Positions 26,885 through 36,899 of a DNA stretch of 44,487 nt are shown here, one piece after another. Both the position numbers and the translations under genes were made by a program. Each line of letters begins with the position of its first letter. The first letter of the stretch is position 1. The DNA comes from a virus. Its lineage: Duplodnaviria; Heunggongvirae; Uroviricota; Caudoviricetes. The notes beneath the pieces were generated by a model. It ran no database searches. It saw nothing but the letters and a program-made list of their open reading frames with translations, and was not told where the DNA came from. The DNA lies in the IMG/VR virus record IMGVR_UViG_2718218131_000009, positions 1 to 44,487 of that record. The stretch is one strand, 5' to 3'.

Positions 26885-27937
26885 TTATTTCCCCACCAGC
26901 TCGTTTATCTCTTTCACTGTCTGGTTAAACCGCTCTGACTCAAGCTCAACACCTAATGCCCGACGCCCCAGCGCCATTGCTGCTTTTATTGTGGAACCGG
27001 ATCCCATAAAAAAATCAGCAACCAGATCACCTGGTCGACTACTGGCATTGATTATTTGCCTGAGCATATCCGCCGGTTTCTCACACGGATGTTTCCCCGG
27101 GTAGAACTGAACGGGTTTATGCATCCAGACATCGGTATAAGGCACGGAGACTGATACGGAGAAATAGCGCCGGAGAGATTTAAACTCATCCAGCAATTCA
27201 GAATATTTACGATTCAGTGAATCATAAGATGCCACCAGCTGGTGGTGTGGTTGTTCCAGTTGTTGTTCCTGAAACTTCTCTGCCGCTATACGGGAAAACA
27301 GTGCCTGTAACTTCCGATAGTCAGCCTCATTCGGCAACTGCCACTGACTGGCACCAAACCAGTGGGAAACCATATTTTTCTTACCTGTGGCTTCGGCAAT
27401 TTGTTTTGCCGTTATACCCAGTTCGGCACGAGCATCCCTGAAATACGATATCAGCGGTGCCATTATGTGCTGTTTGAGTTCCCTTTCTTTTGCTGCATAG
27501 CCGTCACTTTTGCCGCGATATGGCCCCTGGTAATGTTCAGCAAACAGAACGCGCTCTGTGGCAGGAAAATATGCACGCAGACTTTCTTTATTACACCCAT
27601 TCCAACGTCCGGACGGCTTCGCCCAGATGATATGGTTAAGCACGTTGAAACGTTCACGCATCATGATCTCAATATCAGATGCCAGGCGATGCCCACAGAA
27701 CAGGTAAAGGCTTCCGGCAGGTTTTAACACCCGCCAGAACTGGGCCAGACAGTGGTCCAGCCACTTAAGGTAATCTTCGTCCCCTTTCCACTGATTGTCC
27801 CAGCCGTTGGGTTTCACCTTGAAGTACGGCGGATCGGTAACAATCAGGTCAATGGAATCATCAGGCAGGGACTGAATAAAATGCAGGCAATCAGCGTTGA
27901 TTAAATCAACACTGTTTATTTTTACAGTATTTTTCAT
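26885..27937 (-). CDS. DNA methyltransferase (beta-class N6-adenine/N4-cytosine), orphan
   Basis: Motif IV DPPY near the N-terminus and motif I FMGSGST near the C-terminus. No adjacent restriction endonuclease gene. Confidence 0.85.
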
Positions 27938-28087: not shown

Positions 28088-28315
28088 TTACTGGCAGCGT
28101 CTGAATTTATTCCCGTACCCGCCGTTATCCTTCGCCAGACCCGCCAGAACTAACTGAGTCAGTATTAACTGGCACCGGGCTTCGCTTACTCCGGTAGTTC
28201 TCGTCATCATGCGTGGCGTTACCCACTTGTCAGCAGGTAAGAAATGAAGGACTGCGGCGGCGGTTTCTGTCATATCTTGCTGTTTTAGCATGTCTTTTTC
28301 CCTTCTGGTTAACAT
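28088..28315 (-). CDS. Hypothetical small protein
   Basis: 75-aa ORF between the methyltransferase and the Q-proximal region. No recognised motif. Confidence 0.4.
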   Translation of the reverse strand: MLTRREKDMLKQQDMTETAAAVLHFLPADKWVTPRMMTRTTGVSEARCQLILTQLVLAGLAKDNGGYGNKFRRCQ

Positions 28316-28561
28316 GACATACCAATAACTCTTGTCTAAAAAGCCAGCAAGATAAAAGGTCAGTATTCACGACCACCAGCGTGTTTACTGTACTGCACCA
28401 AGTTTACAGGTACAAAAAAACCGCTCAGCGGCGGGTTTAAGTTGTGTGGCGAAGTAACCACTCTTAACAGCATATTTGATTTTTTACGATTGTAAACGGT
28501 TGATTATTCATCTCCAATAAAAATAATTGTGTAGGTATGCCCTTAACAATGGATAAGAAAC

Positions 28562-29008
28562 ATGAATAAAATGACTGTACTATTACTTAGCGCAACTATC
28601 ATTTCAGGTTGTACTTCTTCCGTACCATTGATAAAAAAAACTCAATCAGGAAAACCTGAGGGGGTTTATCAAAATACGACAAAAGATAAAGTCAAAGATG
28701 CCCTTGTGAATTACTGCAATAGTAGAGGGTTGATAATTTACAACGCTGATAACAGCAGTGTTATATGTGGTAAAGAACTGGAAGGCGGGTCTGCTGTTTT
28801 TGGACAAATGTTAATCGGCAATGCCTATTCAACAACCCCGGTATCAAAAGTCAGATTTACTATCGCTCAAGTTAATAACGATACAAAAGTGTGGGCCGAT
28901 ATGTGGATGGAAACTCAAATGGCAATGGGGCAAGTACAACAAATGGCTATAACAGACAACGCAAGCAAAAACACTATCCAACAACGTCTTGATGAATTAA
29001 AACCTTAA
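28562..29008 (+). CDS. Lipoprotein (moron)
   Basis: Signal peptide with lipobox ISGC. AT-rich, on the strand opposite to the late operon, followed by a hairpin terminator. Confidence 0.7.
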   Translation: MNKMTVLLLSATIISGCTSSVPLIKKTQSGKPEGVYQNTTKDKVKDALVNYCNSRGLIIYNADNSSVICGKELEGGSAVFGQMLIGNAYSTTPVSKVRFTIAQVNNDTKVWADMWMETQMAMGQVQQMAITDNASKNTIQQRLDELKP

Positions 29009-29475: not shown

Positions 29476-30471
29476 TCAGGCCAGTACGCCAATTGCCAGC
29501 GCACGATCGATAAAACGAAATATCAGCTCCAGCTGGGAGCCATACTTCTCTTCAAATGCCACGGTATCCGCATGCAGCTCGTCGTGATGCTTTCTGCACA
29601 AAGGCAACACAAAGAGGTCATGCGCTTTTGTACCCATTCCACCCTGACCGTGGCCTATCAGGTGGTGGGGATCATCAGCAGGCTTTCCACAACATGCACA
29701 CGGCTGTGTCTTAACCCAGCGCGTGTACTTTTCATTAACCCAGCGGCGGCGTTTTGGGCGTAACATAAAAGACTCCGGCGACTCCGGATCCACTTTCAGC
29801 GCCAGCACCTTTTTTGCCTTATCCTGGATGATGCTGGTGGCAGGAACCGAAGGCACAAGGTCACTTTCCCGGGTGACAGACGGCACAACAGGCTTTGGTA
29901 ATCTCAGTGCCTTACGGGCTGCACTTTCCGGTAAGGCATCCGCTAGGTCATTACGAATCAGCCACCAGCACAGTTCCGGCATTGTCACAACGTGACTATC
30001 ATCAAAACCGAGATCCCGACGCACAACAGACAACACCCAGCGGGCACAGTTATCCGTTGCCATTGATTCCAGCCGTTCCGTGAACTGATCGCGCAGCTGG
30101 TTATCGCAGTGCCAGCACAGACGGATTGCGCCCGGAGCGTGTCGCATTGTGGTCATGTTCTCGCTGTGCCAGTCGGAATGAGGCCACTGGCAGCCTTTTT
30201 CACGACGTAACCAGCTTTCAAGACATTCCACGCCACCAGCACGACGGATCACTGCCTCATTGCGGAACACGGCCCGAACGGCAGGATCATCCGCCAGCGG
30301 TTGTGATGCCGCCGGAACGGCACCACTGGCGAAAGATGAATAACGTTCCGGCTCAGGCTCCAGCAGAACACGCCCCTGCATAAACAGGGGCATCAGCTCT
30401 GAACCTGGCCTGAACAATACGATCCCCATACGCGGGGCAATTTCAGGGGTCAGTAGTGCTCTCACGGTCAC
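29476..30471 (-). CDS. DUF968/HNH-like protein
   Basis: C-terminal CACCGKP...[10 protein letters not shown]...CRKHHDELH Cys/His motif. Confidence 0.7.
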
Positions 30472-31301: not shown

Positions 31302-31691
31302 TCAGGCGGCTGCACCCGCCGGTTTCTCATACTTACTGATAGTGATCTCGACCTTCCCTTTCTGGATAACCGGTCCCCACTCCACCAGCATTCTTTTCAC
31401 CTGGCTGTCGTCTTCCCACACCCCCGCGTGGGTCAGGGCGTCAAACAGCGCCTTGTTATAGTTGTCCAGATCGCGGATCCGGTTATCCGGAGGAAACAAC
31501 ACGATCTCCACTGAAGCAGGTGCCGACGTTGGTTTTGGCAGACGACGTAACTGCTCAACTATTGCTGCGCACGCCGCGCTCTGGAATTTGCGCCCCGCCG
31601 CGCTTATCAGGCTTTTACCAGCAAACGCCCCTTTATTAGGGTGTCGCCAGTACGTATTCACGCTGGGCGGGAAAGGTAGGATCAGTTTCAT
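31302..31691 (-). CDS. rusA: Holliday junction resolvase RusA
   Basis: MKLILPFPPSVNTYW... with a conserved acidic catalytic region. Confidence 0.9.
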   Translation of the reverse strand: MKLILPFPPSVNTYWRHPNKGAFAGKSLISAAGRKFQSAACAAIVEQLRRLPKPTSAPASVEIVLFPPDNRIRDLDNYNKALFDALTHAGVWEDDSQVKRMLVEWGPVIQKGKVEITISKYEKPAGAAA

Positions 31692-32014
31692 ACTTTCAGG
31701 CCTCTCTCATGTAACCAGTGGGTTGCACGCAGCCTGGCGTTTTCCTCACCGGCAAGCAGTGAGCGGATAATCCCGACCGCCTCGCTGTCGTCGTCCTTCA
31801 CCGCGGTATGAAGCGTTATCCCCCGGGCCACGCCACGCTTTATCGTGATGACGCCTTTTTTCTCCAGTGCGCGAAGATGCTCCACCGCTGCATTCACTGA
31901 ACGGTATCCCAGCATGGTTGCCACCTCCTGATTGGTTGGCGGGAAGCCACGTTCTTTCTGGTAAGAAATCAGCATATCCAGCACCTGCTGCTGGCATTGA
32001 GTTAACGTCGTCAT
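31688..32014 (-). CDS. LexA N-terminal DNA-binding-domain homolog (no peptidase domain)
   Basis: QQQVLDMLISYQKERGFPPTNQEVATMLGYRSVNAAVEHLRALEKKGVI parallels the LexA winged-helix domain (QQEVFDLIRDH...[32 protein letters not shown]). It is 108 aa and lacks the S24 cleavage domain. Confidence 0.75.
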   Translation of the reverse strand: MTTLTQCQQQVLDMLISYQKERGFPPTNQEVATMLGYRSVNAAVEHLRALEKKGVITIKRGVARGITLHTAVKDDDSEAVGIIRSLLAGEENARLRATHWLHERGLKV

Positions 32015-32664
32015 GCCGCCATCTCCCTGACCAGTTTTTCCGCCTGCTGGCGAACCTGCACCAGAAAGGCTTCACCACATGCCTCAAGTTCATCGCGCCC
32101 GATGTAGCTGATTGCCGGTCCCTTCCAGGTCTTGTCGAAAACAGCAATAGCACCAGCGAAGAAAGCGCCTGTCGGCACCTGCTTCTCATCCTTCGGGATA
32201 AACCAGGCAGGCAGTTCAAAACCAATACGCCCGCGAATAAAAGCAATATGGTCCGCATCTTCCGGCCACCACACTTCGCTGGTGGCAGCTTTGATCAGGA
32301 AAACATAGCGCCCGCCCTTATCACGCATGGCACTGGCATGTTTCATGATGTAACGCATGCCGGTGATGTATTGCCCCTCATGCTGACTGGCGCGGCTGTA
32401 TGGGGGATTACCAAAGGCAGCACCTTTAAGCTCCGCAAGACGTTCTGACCAGTCATGCGCCAGCGCGTTATCTTCCGCCGTGTAATACGCGGCACATTTG
32501 GCGTTATCACCGTCAGTAAACAGATCCAGAACAAACGGGCCAAACAGGGTGTTAATTCCCCAGAAAATGTTGTCCGGCGTGCGCCACTGATCGCCCACTT
32601 CCTTCAGTTCATGGGCTGGTTTGTTCCGCAGTTCCACCAGCGCCTGGCAATATTTATTACTCAT
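32011..32664 (-). CDS. Phage Dam-family N6-adenine methyltransferase
   Basis: WRTPDNIF... and FGNPPYS (NPPY) motifs. Start probably MSNKYCQ at 32664; the track start at 32697 overlaps the upstream gene. Confidence 0.85.
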   Translation of the reverse strand: MSNKYCQALVELRNKPAHELKEVGDQWRTPDNIFWGINTLFGPFVLDLFTDGDNAKCAAYYTAEDNALAHDWSERLAELKGAAFGNPPYSRASQHEGQYITGMRYIMKHASAMRDKGGRYVFLIKAATSEVWWPEDADHIAFIRGRIGFELPAWFIPKDEKQVPTGAFFAGAIAVFDKTWKGPAISYIGRDELEACGEAFLVQVRQQAEKLVREMAA

Positions 32665-33158
32665 TAAGCCCCCACGTAATTCCCTGACAGATACCACTCT
32701 TCACCCGATGCAGCGCGCTTGCTGCTTTTCCGTAAGCACCGCTCACGACGCGCCAGAAAATTGTTTCGTTCTGGCTGGGAGTGGCTTTCACGGAATGCCG
32801 CCATCCACACGGTTGCAGCACGACGGTATAAGCCCCTGGACTCCAGTTCTTCAGCCTGGCGGGTCAGGCACAAAATCACCCGTGGATCGTTAGTGCCGAC
32901 ATAGAAATTGCGCACAGGTCTGGTTTCTCGAACTGGTTGTGGTTCCGGTTCCTGCGCTCTCTCAGTCAGGCGCGGGAAATGTCTGCGTGTATCTCCTTCA
33001 CAACGGTGAGCCACACGCCCACTCTGACGTAACTTGCTTGCTGACTGCAGAACGCGCTGCCGTGAGTAACCTGCAAAAGCATCCGCAATGTCTCCGGAAG
33101 TACACCCCGGATGGGCTTCAATGAATTTCTGAACTTCATTCAAAAGACTCATGATCAC
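32664..33158 (-). CDS. PerC-family-like regulator with N-terminal extension
   Basis: The C-terminal region EELESRGLYRRAATVWMAAF matches the PerC/Pch signature (ELEskGLWRRAA..W). Confidence 0.6.
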   Translation of the reverse strand: MIMSLLNEVQKFIEAHPGCTSGDIADAFAGYSRQRVLQSASKLRQSGRVAHRCEGDTRRHFPRLTERAQEPEPQPVRETRPVRNFYVGTNDPRVILCLTRQAEELESRGLYRRAATVWMAAFRESHSQPERNNFLARRERCLRKSSKRAASGEEWYLSGNYVGA

Positions 33159-36224: not shown

Positions 36225-36899
36225 ATGAAAACAGTCCATGACATCCGGCGGTCTAACGCCAGAAAACTGAGAGATGGTGTTGGCGGGAATTCTTCCTTTG
36301 CCACCATGATTGATCGCGAGCCAACCCAGACCAGCAGGTTTATGGGAGATGGTGCTACTAAAAATATCGGTGACAGCATGGCACGGCACATCGAAAAATG
36401 TTTCGACCTGCCTGTCGGATGGCTTGATCAAGAACACCAGACAACAAACATCACAAAAAAACCTGATGTTTCAATTACTAACAAACAAATAACGTTAGTC
36501 CCTGTCATATCATGGGTACAGGCCGGAGCATGGAAAGAAGTTGGCTATTCTGAGGTTGATTTGAGCACAGCAGAAACGTATCCCTGCCCTGTACCCTGTG
36601 GCGAAATGACTTATATCTTGCGGGTGATTGGTGATTCAATGATTGATGAGTACCGCCCGGGAGACATGATTTTTGTAGATCCTGAAGTCCCTGCCTGCCA
36701 CGGTGACGACGTTATTGCATTGATGCACGATTCAGGCGAAACCACCTTCAAGCGGTTGATAGAAGATGGAACACAGCGTTATCTCAAAGCATTAAACCCA
36801 AACTGGCCTGAGCCTTACATTAAGATTAACGGTAATTGCTCTATAATTGGTACAGTGATTTTCTCGGGAAAACCAAGAAGATACACAATAAAGGCCTAA
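36225..36899 (+). CDS. CI-type repressor (HTH plus S24 LexA-like peptidase domain)
   Basis: C-terminal VIGDSM Ser nucleophile and TFKRL Lys. N-terminal HTH ending in PVGWL. Confidence 0.85.
   Translation: MKTVHDIRRSNARKLRDGVGGNSSFATMIDREPTQTSRFMGDGATKNIGDSMARHIEKCFDLPVGWLDQEHQTTNITKKPDVSITNKQITLVPVISWVQAGAWKEVGYSEVDLSTAETYPCPVPCGEMTYILRVIGDSMIDEYRPGDMIFVDPEVPACHGDDVIALMHDSGETTFKRLIEDGTQRYLKALNPNWPEPYIKINGNCSIIGTVIFSGKPRRYTIKA

Follow-up and report, generated by a model that had tools for sequence, protein, structure and literature searches.

The question raised by the window, a 44,487-nt stretch of viral DNA (IMG/VR record IMGVR_UViG_2718218131_000009, Caudoviricetes), is what a phage does with the DNA-binding domain of LexA in the absence of the rest of LexA. 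The gene concerned, at 31688–32014, encodes a 108-aa protein comprising a LexA-type winged helix-turn-helix (wHTH) followed by a predicted two-helix hairpin. The first-pass annotation of this DNA had described the product as a prophage-encoded homologue of the LexA N-terminal domain (NTD) without an S24 autocleavage domain, and had proposed that it could occupy SOS boxes without being cleared by RecA-stimulated cleavage. The description proves accurate, while the proposed occupancy of SOS boxes is not supported. The explanation we favour, at about even confidence, is that the protein is a RecA-insensitive, delayed-early, LexA-derived phage DNA-binding regulator with an operator of its own and a hairpin for assembly. 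The gene and the parts of its product are as follows:

31688..32014, minus strand: LexA-NTD-only gene, 108 aa (ATG-to-stop open reading frame, ORF)
32023..32027, minus strand: Shine-Dalgarno sequence GGGAG, 8 nt before the ATG of the LexA-like gene (plus-strand CTCCC, read directly from the sequence)
31811..32014, minus strand: LexA-type wHTH, residues 1–68 (helices 6–22, 28–35, and 40–52; strands 56–58 and 66–68)
31865..31900, minus strand: recognition helix SVNAAVEHLRAL, residues 39–50 (alignments, and tabulations of the family and of chromosomal LexAs)
31706..31792, minus strand: C-terminal two-helix hairpin, residues 75–103 (helices 75–88 and 93–103; AlphaFold2 model and family conservation)

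The LexA-like protein and its domain content

The 108-aa protein matches the Pfam family LexA_DNA_bind (PF01726) over the entire model (positions 1–65 of 65), with an E value of 2.9e-19 and a score of 69 bits against a cutoff of 23.7; the runner-up wHTH family reaches only 18.8 bits, and Rrf2 (E 0.013) falls below its cutoff. A search of solved structures in the Protein Data Bank (PDB) returns LexA for all top matches (E. coli LexA NTD, 1lea, E 1.4e-15), and BLASTP against E. coli LexA yields 39 of 90 identities (E 4e-22), with a LexA query that agreed with the PDB LexA entries. An AlphaFold2 (AF2) monomer model, obtained with 30 family sequences as input (pLDDT 82.6, pTM 0.56), superimposes on DNA-bound LexA (3jso) with a root-mean-square deviation of 1.0–1.1 Å and an identity of 50–51% over 67–68 residues, and the residue numbering of the protein coincides with that of E. 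coli LexA. The resemblance is therefore specific to LexA and is not that of a generic winged helix.

The remainder of LexA is missing. Pfam detects no S24 peptidase domain in the protein, which stops at residue 108, and the LexA C-terminal S24 peptidase/dimerisation domain, with its Ser119/Lys156 dyad, is absent. The LexA equivalog model TIGR00498 is covered only at positions 1–91 of 203 and scores 70.8 bits, failing its cutoff of 110.95, and a tblastn search with LexA gives no match to the C-terminal domain near the gene. Lacking an S24 domain, the protein must be insensitive to RecA-stimulated self-cleavage and cannot be cleared by it. Homology to LexA runs past the DNA-binding domain and through the linker, with A88-G89-E90 aligned to LexA Ala84-Gly85-Glu86, so that the ancestor looks like a LexA truncated directly after its cleavage site; the phage protein ends shortly past the residue aligned to that site. 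The A-G at the cleavage-site position is not conserved across the phage family, and there is no catalytic domain for cleavage in cis. Among PADLOC defence-system models, the sole match to the protein is an insignificant one to CARF-wHTH.

The phage protein covers nearly the same extent of LexA sequence as LexA(1–84), the autocleavage fragment that retains weak operator binding and that the cell clears through ClpXP. It differs from this fragment in having about 20 extra residues, which form the conserved hairpin, in ending ...GLKV rather than ...VAA, and in its altered recognition helix.

The C-terminal extension is common to all family members and absent in LexA, with the consensus EAVxLLRALLAGExxARxRAIxxLxxRG. 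AF2 predicts helices at residues 75–88 and 93–103 (pLDDT about 86–87). A97 and L101 occur in every one of 30 sequences, which range down to 38% identity, and A93 and G105 occur in nearly every one. Neither structure superposition nor a LexA sequence search matches the hairpin to the LexA C-terminal domain. On the basis of the model, we infer that the hairpin is an oligomerisation or partner-binding module standing in for the S24 domain. Regulators of the MecI/BlaI, MntR/DtxR, MarR, and Rrf2 families, in which a wHTH is joined to a C-terminal helical dimeriser, offer an analogy only, since they have no sequence relationship to the phage protein, the hairpin of which is much shorter.

Recognition helix, family divergence, and SOS boxes

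LexA contacts DNA through Ser39, Asn41, Ala42, Glu44, and Glu45 (PMC3091678). The window protein keeps four of the five (Ser39, Asn41, Ala42, and Glu45) and has Val in place of Glu44; Pro40 of LexA is likewise replaced by Val, and the wing residues R64-G65-I66 are identical. Across the recognition helix SVNAAVEHLRAL, 9 of 12 residues are identical to LexA at the same numbering, in agreement with the likeness that the first-pass annotation had pointed out. The fold, the numbering, Ser39/Asn41/Ala42/Glu45, and the wing are thus those of the E. coli LexA NTD (1lea/1leb, 3jso), whereas the S24 peptidase/dimerisation domain is missing, a family-specific hairpin is present, and positions 40 and 44 are both Val. 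The genes differ in setting as well: the phage gene lies in an early lytic operon, whereas lexA is a self-regulated chromosomal SOS gene.

The loss of Glu44 is a property of the whole family. Among 116 full-length members, Glu44 is absent from all 116 (V in 48, A in 22, T in 15, N in 13, L in 9, and F in 7), and position 45 is Glu in 71, Asp in 31, and another residue in 14; Ser39 never varies, and Asn41 and the wing R64-G65-I66 vary little or not at all. The control set consists of chromosomal LexAs from a family-profile scan of genome contigs, which returned mainly chromosomal lexA and was of no use for synteny. In this set, 75 of 75 beta- and gamma-proteobacterial LexAs have Glu44 and Glu or Asp at position 45, with the pattern S-[APV]-N-[AS]-A-E-[ED]-H. 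Every family member with a named source comes from Enterobacteriaceae, which are expected to have one common SOS-box consensus. Because a conserved scaffold carries variable specificity positions, the sequences argue that the family has diverged to operators of its own and does not mimic host LexA, and they argue against SOS-box binding by the 108-aa protein. In the case of the E. coli subfamily, the site could still be one related to CTGT.

Relatives with 38–50% identity were found by exhaustive HMMER and profile searches in prophages of Cronobacter, Klebsiella, Salmonella, Citrobacter, Atlantibacter, Enterobacter, and Kosakonia, with the Klebsiella relatives forming clusters of about 1000 sequences. 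The window protein is 44% identical to enterobacterial LexA (residues 1–90) and 54% identical to Burkholderia LexA (residues 1–68). Since enterobacterial LexA is no nearer to it than the LexAs of Burkholderia or Alteromonas are, sequence comparison places it in an old lineage and not in a recent capture of lexA.

Several observations concern relatives of the protein. LexA homologues consisting of the DNA-binding domain alone are common among viral proteins, and proteins of 140–170 aa with two tandem LexA_DNA_bind domains and no S24 domain also occur (P0132, P0145, P0148, P0155, P0158, P0162, and P0168). Subfamilies differ at residues 39–46 (SVNAAVEH, SPNAATDM, SSNAVLLH, and SANGAFEH), and the Klebsiella subfamily has the most diverged recognition helix, SSNAVLLH. 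At Klebsiella loci L001–L003 (4387–5393), a 130-aa family member lies two genes downstream of dinI, which has an upstream CTGT-N8-ACAG box; judged from this arrangement, the Klebsiella LexA-like gene may be SOS-induced.

The foremost alternative is that the protein is an uncleavable LexA mimic, which would hold SOS boxes (those of host recA, sulA, and other genes, and those of the phage) repressed while host LexA is cleaved, and would thereby damp or reset the SOS response or shut off functions of rival elements that LexA controls. We regard this as unlikely, also for the E. coli subfamily taken separately. A mimic would be consistent with the 50% identity to the LexA NTD, the retained Ser39, Asn41, Ala42, Glu45, and R64-G65-I66, the fit of the model to DNA-bound LexA at about 1 Å, the missing S24 domain, and the A-G-E alignment, by which the protein resembles the LexA 1–84 fragment with a tail added. 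The recognition helix weakens the case, because Glu44 is replaced in all family members but kept in all LexAs sampled, and position 45 varies even within Enterobacteriaceae hosts; moreover, the dimerisation domain of LexA is absent, and a 16-bp dyad calls for a geometry that the hairpin would have to recreate. The other support for a mimic comes from SOS boxes of the window itself. A position matrix derived from E. coli SOS boxes, the scores of which are approximate, identifies three strong sites and no others above 11 bits: 369–388 (24.1), 27910–27929 (22.7), and 341–360 (20.3). These sites and the gene that contains the second are as follows:

341..388, no strand assigned: two strong SOS boxes, 341–360 and 369–388 (TACTGTATACAAACACAGTA), outside the prophage (matrix scores 20.3 and 24.1)
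27910..27929, no strand assigned: strong SOS box CACTGTTTATTTTTACAGTA in codons 3–9 of the late N6_N4 methylase gene, a candidate target (matrix score 22.7)
26885–27937, minus strand: N6_N4 DNA methylase gene, between Q and the lysis genes (ORF)

The 369–388 palindrome, which the first-pass annotation had put forward as a binding site, is indeed a strong SOS box, but it is about 31 kb from the LexA-like gene, past the tail-fibre end of the prophage and outside it. The 341–388 boxes, which belong to an effector-like gene, are flanked by an integrase remnant on one side and, on the other, by a 42-aa ORF followed by the gene for a 1134-aa EspN-like effector (DUF4765). The two boxes are 8 bp apart and overlap a TTGACA-like hexamer, with associated stretches at 164–340, 402–530, and 673–4077; the 42-aa ORF has a DinI-like start (MRIEI...), the DUF4765 protein belongs to the EspN family of type III secretion system effectors, and the remnant, of a tyrosine integrase, is split by ISApl1 in strain SLK172. 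From this arrangement, an islet next to the prophage would seem to hold an effector-like gene under SOS/LexA control.

The box at 27910–27929 is the sole strong SOS box within the prophage, and an uncleavable protein on it would sit in the late operon of the phage itself, in the interval between Q and the lysis genes, which counts against a mimic. A link between this box and the LexA-like gene was considered and rejected. Specifically, the box is unchanged at locus L173, whose LexA-like protein has the very different helix SQNTVFIH. A Stx2a phage and phiP27 retain it in the form CTGT-N8-CCAG, and the annotation of the 12-kb stretches examined in these two includes no LexA-like gene. Because it is conserved in phages without the LexA-like gene and in one with a different helix, the box tracks the methylase and not the LexA-like gene, and is most simply read as a host-LexA site or a coding coincidence. 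It is conserved in methylase alleles that are only about 79% identical and in which the flanking amino acids differ. In Stx2a and Stx2e (phiP27) phages, the box-bearing methylase lies between Q and the tRNA-stx genes; the box could be a LexA site inside the late/stx transcription unit, or could reflect coding constraint (NTVKI[NS]S).

The motif CTGT-N8-ACAG occurs at 8 sites in the window, against 0.6 expected, an excess that is unique to a spacing of 8. Without the three strong boxes, five sites remain, which have matrix scores of at most 9.3 and GC-rich spacers and are mostly intragenic; a count of five is within the range of other 4-mers (TGCC gives 9), and the excess was accordingly rejected as a special target set. 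A CTGT-N8-ACAG match over the gene start at locus L007 is likewise attributed to chance, since the ribosome-binding site explains it and a 1-bp indel removes it at locus L008.

A variant of the same idea is restricted to the E. coli subfamily (helix SVNAAVEH), which would still read SOS boxes, or a large subset of them, and would act as a RecA-proof 'super-LexA' in lytic growth. We consider this quite improbable. If it held, the SOS regulon would be closed again after induction, and LexA-controlled antirepressors, colicins, and effectors of competitors would be blocked.

Operon position and neighbouring genes

The LexA-like gene sits in the nin region of a lambdoid prophage, in line with the prophage origin that had been assigned to it. 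The window appears collinear with the genome of E. coli SLK172, as checked at the nin region and the left end. The genes that bear on the position of the LexA-like gene are as follows:

32011..32697, minus strand: Dam-like N6-adenine methyltransferase, upstream neighbour (coding sequence 32011–32664 in PGAP; PF05869, E 1.1e-45)
31302..31691, minus strand: RusA Holliday-junction resolvase, downstream neighbour (PF05866 and synteny)
29476–30471, minus strand: DUF968 protein (CxxC...DDPHH...CxxHH motif, weak HNHc_6 match)
36225..36899, plus strand: CI-type repressor with an S24 peptidase domain, ymfK-like (PF00717, E 2e-26; annotation and gene order)

The early-right genes on the minus strand run in the order cro-like, cII (CP76), Rha/Ash, O-like HTH_36 replication protein, PerC/YfdN, Dam-like methylase, LexA-like, and RusA, and then KilA-N, DUF968, Q antiterminator (PF06530), N6_N4 methylase, lysis genes, and terminase. 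The gene for the CI-type S24 repressor, presumed to be the RecA-sensitive switch of the prophage, diverges from this operon, so that the LexA-like gene is in the rightward operon downstream of cro and cII. ATGA overlaps are present at both of its ends, joining the methylase stop to the LexA-like start and the LexA-like stop to the rusA start, and no promoter-like site adjoins the gene. Because of the overlaps on both sides and the lack of an adjoining promoter-like site, the LexA-like protein should, by analogy with lambdoid phages, be a delayed-early product that is made only when the CI repressor has lost its activity.

Two ORFs occupy the interval from Q to the late methylase, one of 67 aa (28090–28300, minus strand; MLKQQDMTETAAAVLHFLPADKW...) and, on the opposite strand, one of 148 aa (28562–29008, plus strand) with a promoter-like site at 28543–28572; neither has a Pfam match. 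The two form a moron-like insertion at the place where related phages carry stx genes.

Synteny was compared among 10 subfamilies, including the window and loci L004–L009 and L172–L177, in which the nin-region placement ahead of RusA, DUF968, and the antiterminator recurs. In 9 of the 10, RusA comes directly after the family gene or with a single small ORF in between, and a DUF968 (HNH-like) gene is at most three genes away in all 10, usually with the antiterminator after it. The DUF968 protein, which belongs to the YdfU family of HNH-like nucleases, uncharacterised and found in lambdoid nin regions, is the steadiest neighbour of the LexA-like gene. The upstream gene is variable: it encodes Dam (PF05869), MethyltransfD12, C5 DNA_methylase, fusions of these, or PerC, or the place is taken by DinI and a small ORF. 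A DNA methyltransferase is upstream in 6 of the 10 subfamilies and comes from three unrelated Pfam families. In the Klebsiella loci, RusA does not adjoin the family gene, and the Citrobacter loci have no methylase. The synteny may hint at a role beside DNA-processing enzymes or may equally reflect a nin module that was inherited as a block.

The first of these possibilities leads to the explanation that the protein is a DNA-binding accessory that would target or modulate RusA, the DUF968 HNH-like nuclease, or the methyltransferase on phage DNA in replication and recombination, and not a transcription factor. The ATGA coupling to the methylase and RusA genes speaks for it, as does the constancy of the neighbourhood (RusA in 9/10, DUF968 in 10/10, and a methyltransferase from one of three unrelated families in 6/10), and fusions to Dam or RusA in protein databases would do so if they were real. 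These 'fusion' proteins, Dam+LexA_DNA_bind and LexA_DNA_bind+RusA (P0021, P0092, P0098, P0121, P0253, P0254, P0266, and P0267 in public sets), most likely result from frameshifts or errors of gene calling where the ATGA overlaps lie. The loci represent one inherited nin module, such that the synteny may reflect descent, and the Klebsiella loci without an adjoining RusA and the Citrobacter loci without a methylase also count against this role. Furthermore, variability of the recognition helix is more characteristic of regulators specific to an operator, and a LexA-type wHTH is not known to us to serve as a subunit of a resolvase or a methylase. We accordingly give the accessory role a low probability.

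Occurrence, proposed mechanism, and implications

The 327-bp gene is present at ≥90% identity in 2233 of 5426 complete E. coli genomes (~40%) and intact (≥80% coverage) in 2223 E. coli genomes. The SLK172 copy is identical in DNA sequence (100%) to the window gene and is annotated as WP_000210170.1, 'LexA family transcriptional regulator'; E. coli genome annotation calls the gene "LexA family transcriptional regulator/protein". It is also found in phages SfV (orf42), SfII, SfIV, cdtI, mEp460, Ayreon, and 1720a-02, and in Stx2c and some Stx2a phages. The protein matches PHROG 362 ("transcriptional repressor") over its full length (residues 1–108 against profile positions 1–106 of 106, E 1.1e-59), and a pfam01726 pham, pham 237, listed in a Stx-phage pangenome (PMC8136144) probably belongs to the same family. 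Phage records label it in various ways, among them "LexA DNA binding domain protein" and the incorrect "SOS-response repressor and protease LexA", while in others the 108-aa protein is mistakenly described as a 'RecA-mediated autopeptidase'. The PHROG 362, NCBI, and pham 237 names are annotation labels without an experimental basis, and a literature search found no functional study of the phage family that combines the LexA NTD with the hairpin, only annotation-level mentions in the Stx-phage pangenome and the work on GIL01 gp6. Mislabelling of the protein as the LexA "repressor and protease" could mislead the annotation of SOS regulons and of prophage induction.

The gene is under strong purifying selection. 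Among 55 alleles (81 copies, from a viral contig scan that returned only copies 98–100% identical), 46 codon variants are synonymous and 13 nonsynonymous, a ratio of about 0.09, and residues 39–46 contain no substitution. A decaying remnant of a captured lexA, or a generic winged-helix resemblance without function, which might be suggested by the end of the protein soon after the LexA cleavage-site position and by the records that mis-annotate it as full LexA, is very improbable, and a dead remnant is excluded, given this selection, the intact gene in 2223 E. coli genomes, and a family conserved down to 38% identity, including the non-LexA hairpin; the comparison with LexAs does not point to recent capture either.

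The favoured explanation, a delayed-early regulator with its own operator, can be set out as a mechanism. Inactivation of the S24-type CI repressor would allow the LexA-like protein to be made, as a delayed-early product, from the rightward pR-type operon, with its translation coupled to that of the Dam-like methylase and RusA. The winged helix (residues 1–68) would bind DNA, and the hairpin (residues 75–103) would replace the S24 domain as a surface for oligomerisation or for binding a partner. The operator, a dyad, would be akin to the CTGT-N8-ACAG SOS box yet separate from it, and would differ among subfamilies. At this operator the protein might repress or, like GIL01 gp6, activate.

GIL01 gp6 is the sole functionally characterised phage protein consisting of a LexA DNA-binding domain only that was found in the literature. 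It is a truncated LexA homologue with its own palindromic site, at which it activates the late promoter P3; it acts independently of RecA, uses Lys38 in its recognition helix, and is described as a wHTH only (PMC6182141). By description, gp6 and the window protein are alike in being essentially the DNA-binding domain of LexA and in being encoded among the early genes of a temperate phage. They differ in that gp6 is from a Bacillus tectivirus and has no C-terminal hairpin, whereas the window protein is lambdoid and has one; no Bacillus tectivirus is among the matches listed (45 of 63 tblastn matches in a phage collection). The gp6 palindrome overlaps the −35 element of the late promoter, whereas inverted-repeat and dyad searches found no candidate late-promoter site in the lambdoid phage of the window, the late genes of which are downstream of the Q antiterminator gene (PF06530).

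Several points weigh against the proposed mechanism. For the operator, a search of the non-coding early-right region (26.8–37.5 kb) found no informative inverted repeat, and a search of the window for repeated perfect dyads (arms of 5–6 nt, spacers of 0–14) found none besides the SOS boxes; in addition, the E. coli subfamily retains four of five contacts and the wing, making residual affinity for SOS boxes possible. For the hairpin, fold searches with the AF2 model give no match that accounts for it, and its putative role in dimerisation derives from a monomer model with a pTM of 0.56. Finally, given how constant its RusA/DUF968 surroundings are, the gene might have a role in DNA metabolism instead.

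What makes the protein interesting is mainly how widespread it is among toxin-converting prophages. A large proportion of the lambdoid prophages of E. coli and Shigella have the gene, among them cdt, serotype-converting, Stx2c, and some Stx2a prophages, and the gene lies in an operon that is switched on at prophage induction. If the protein has its own operator, one more level of regulation would come into the induction of toxin-converting phages; if, instead, it binds SOS boxes, it would represent a widespread means by which phages manipulate how the host responds to DNA damage.

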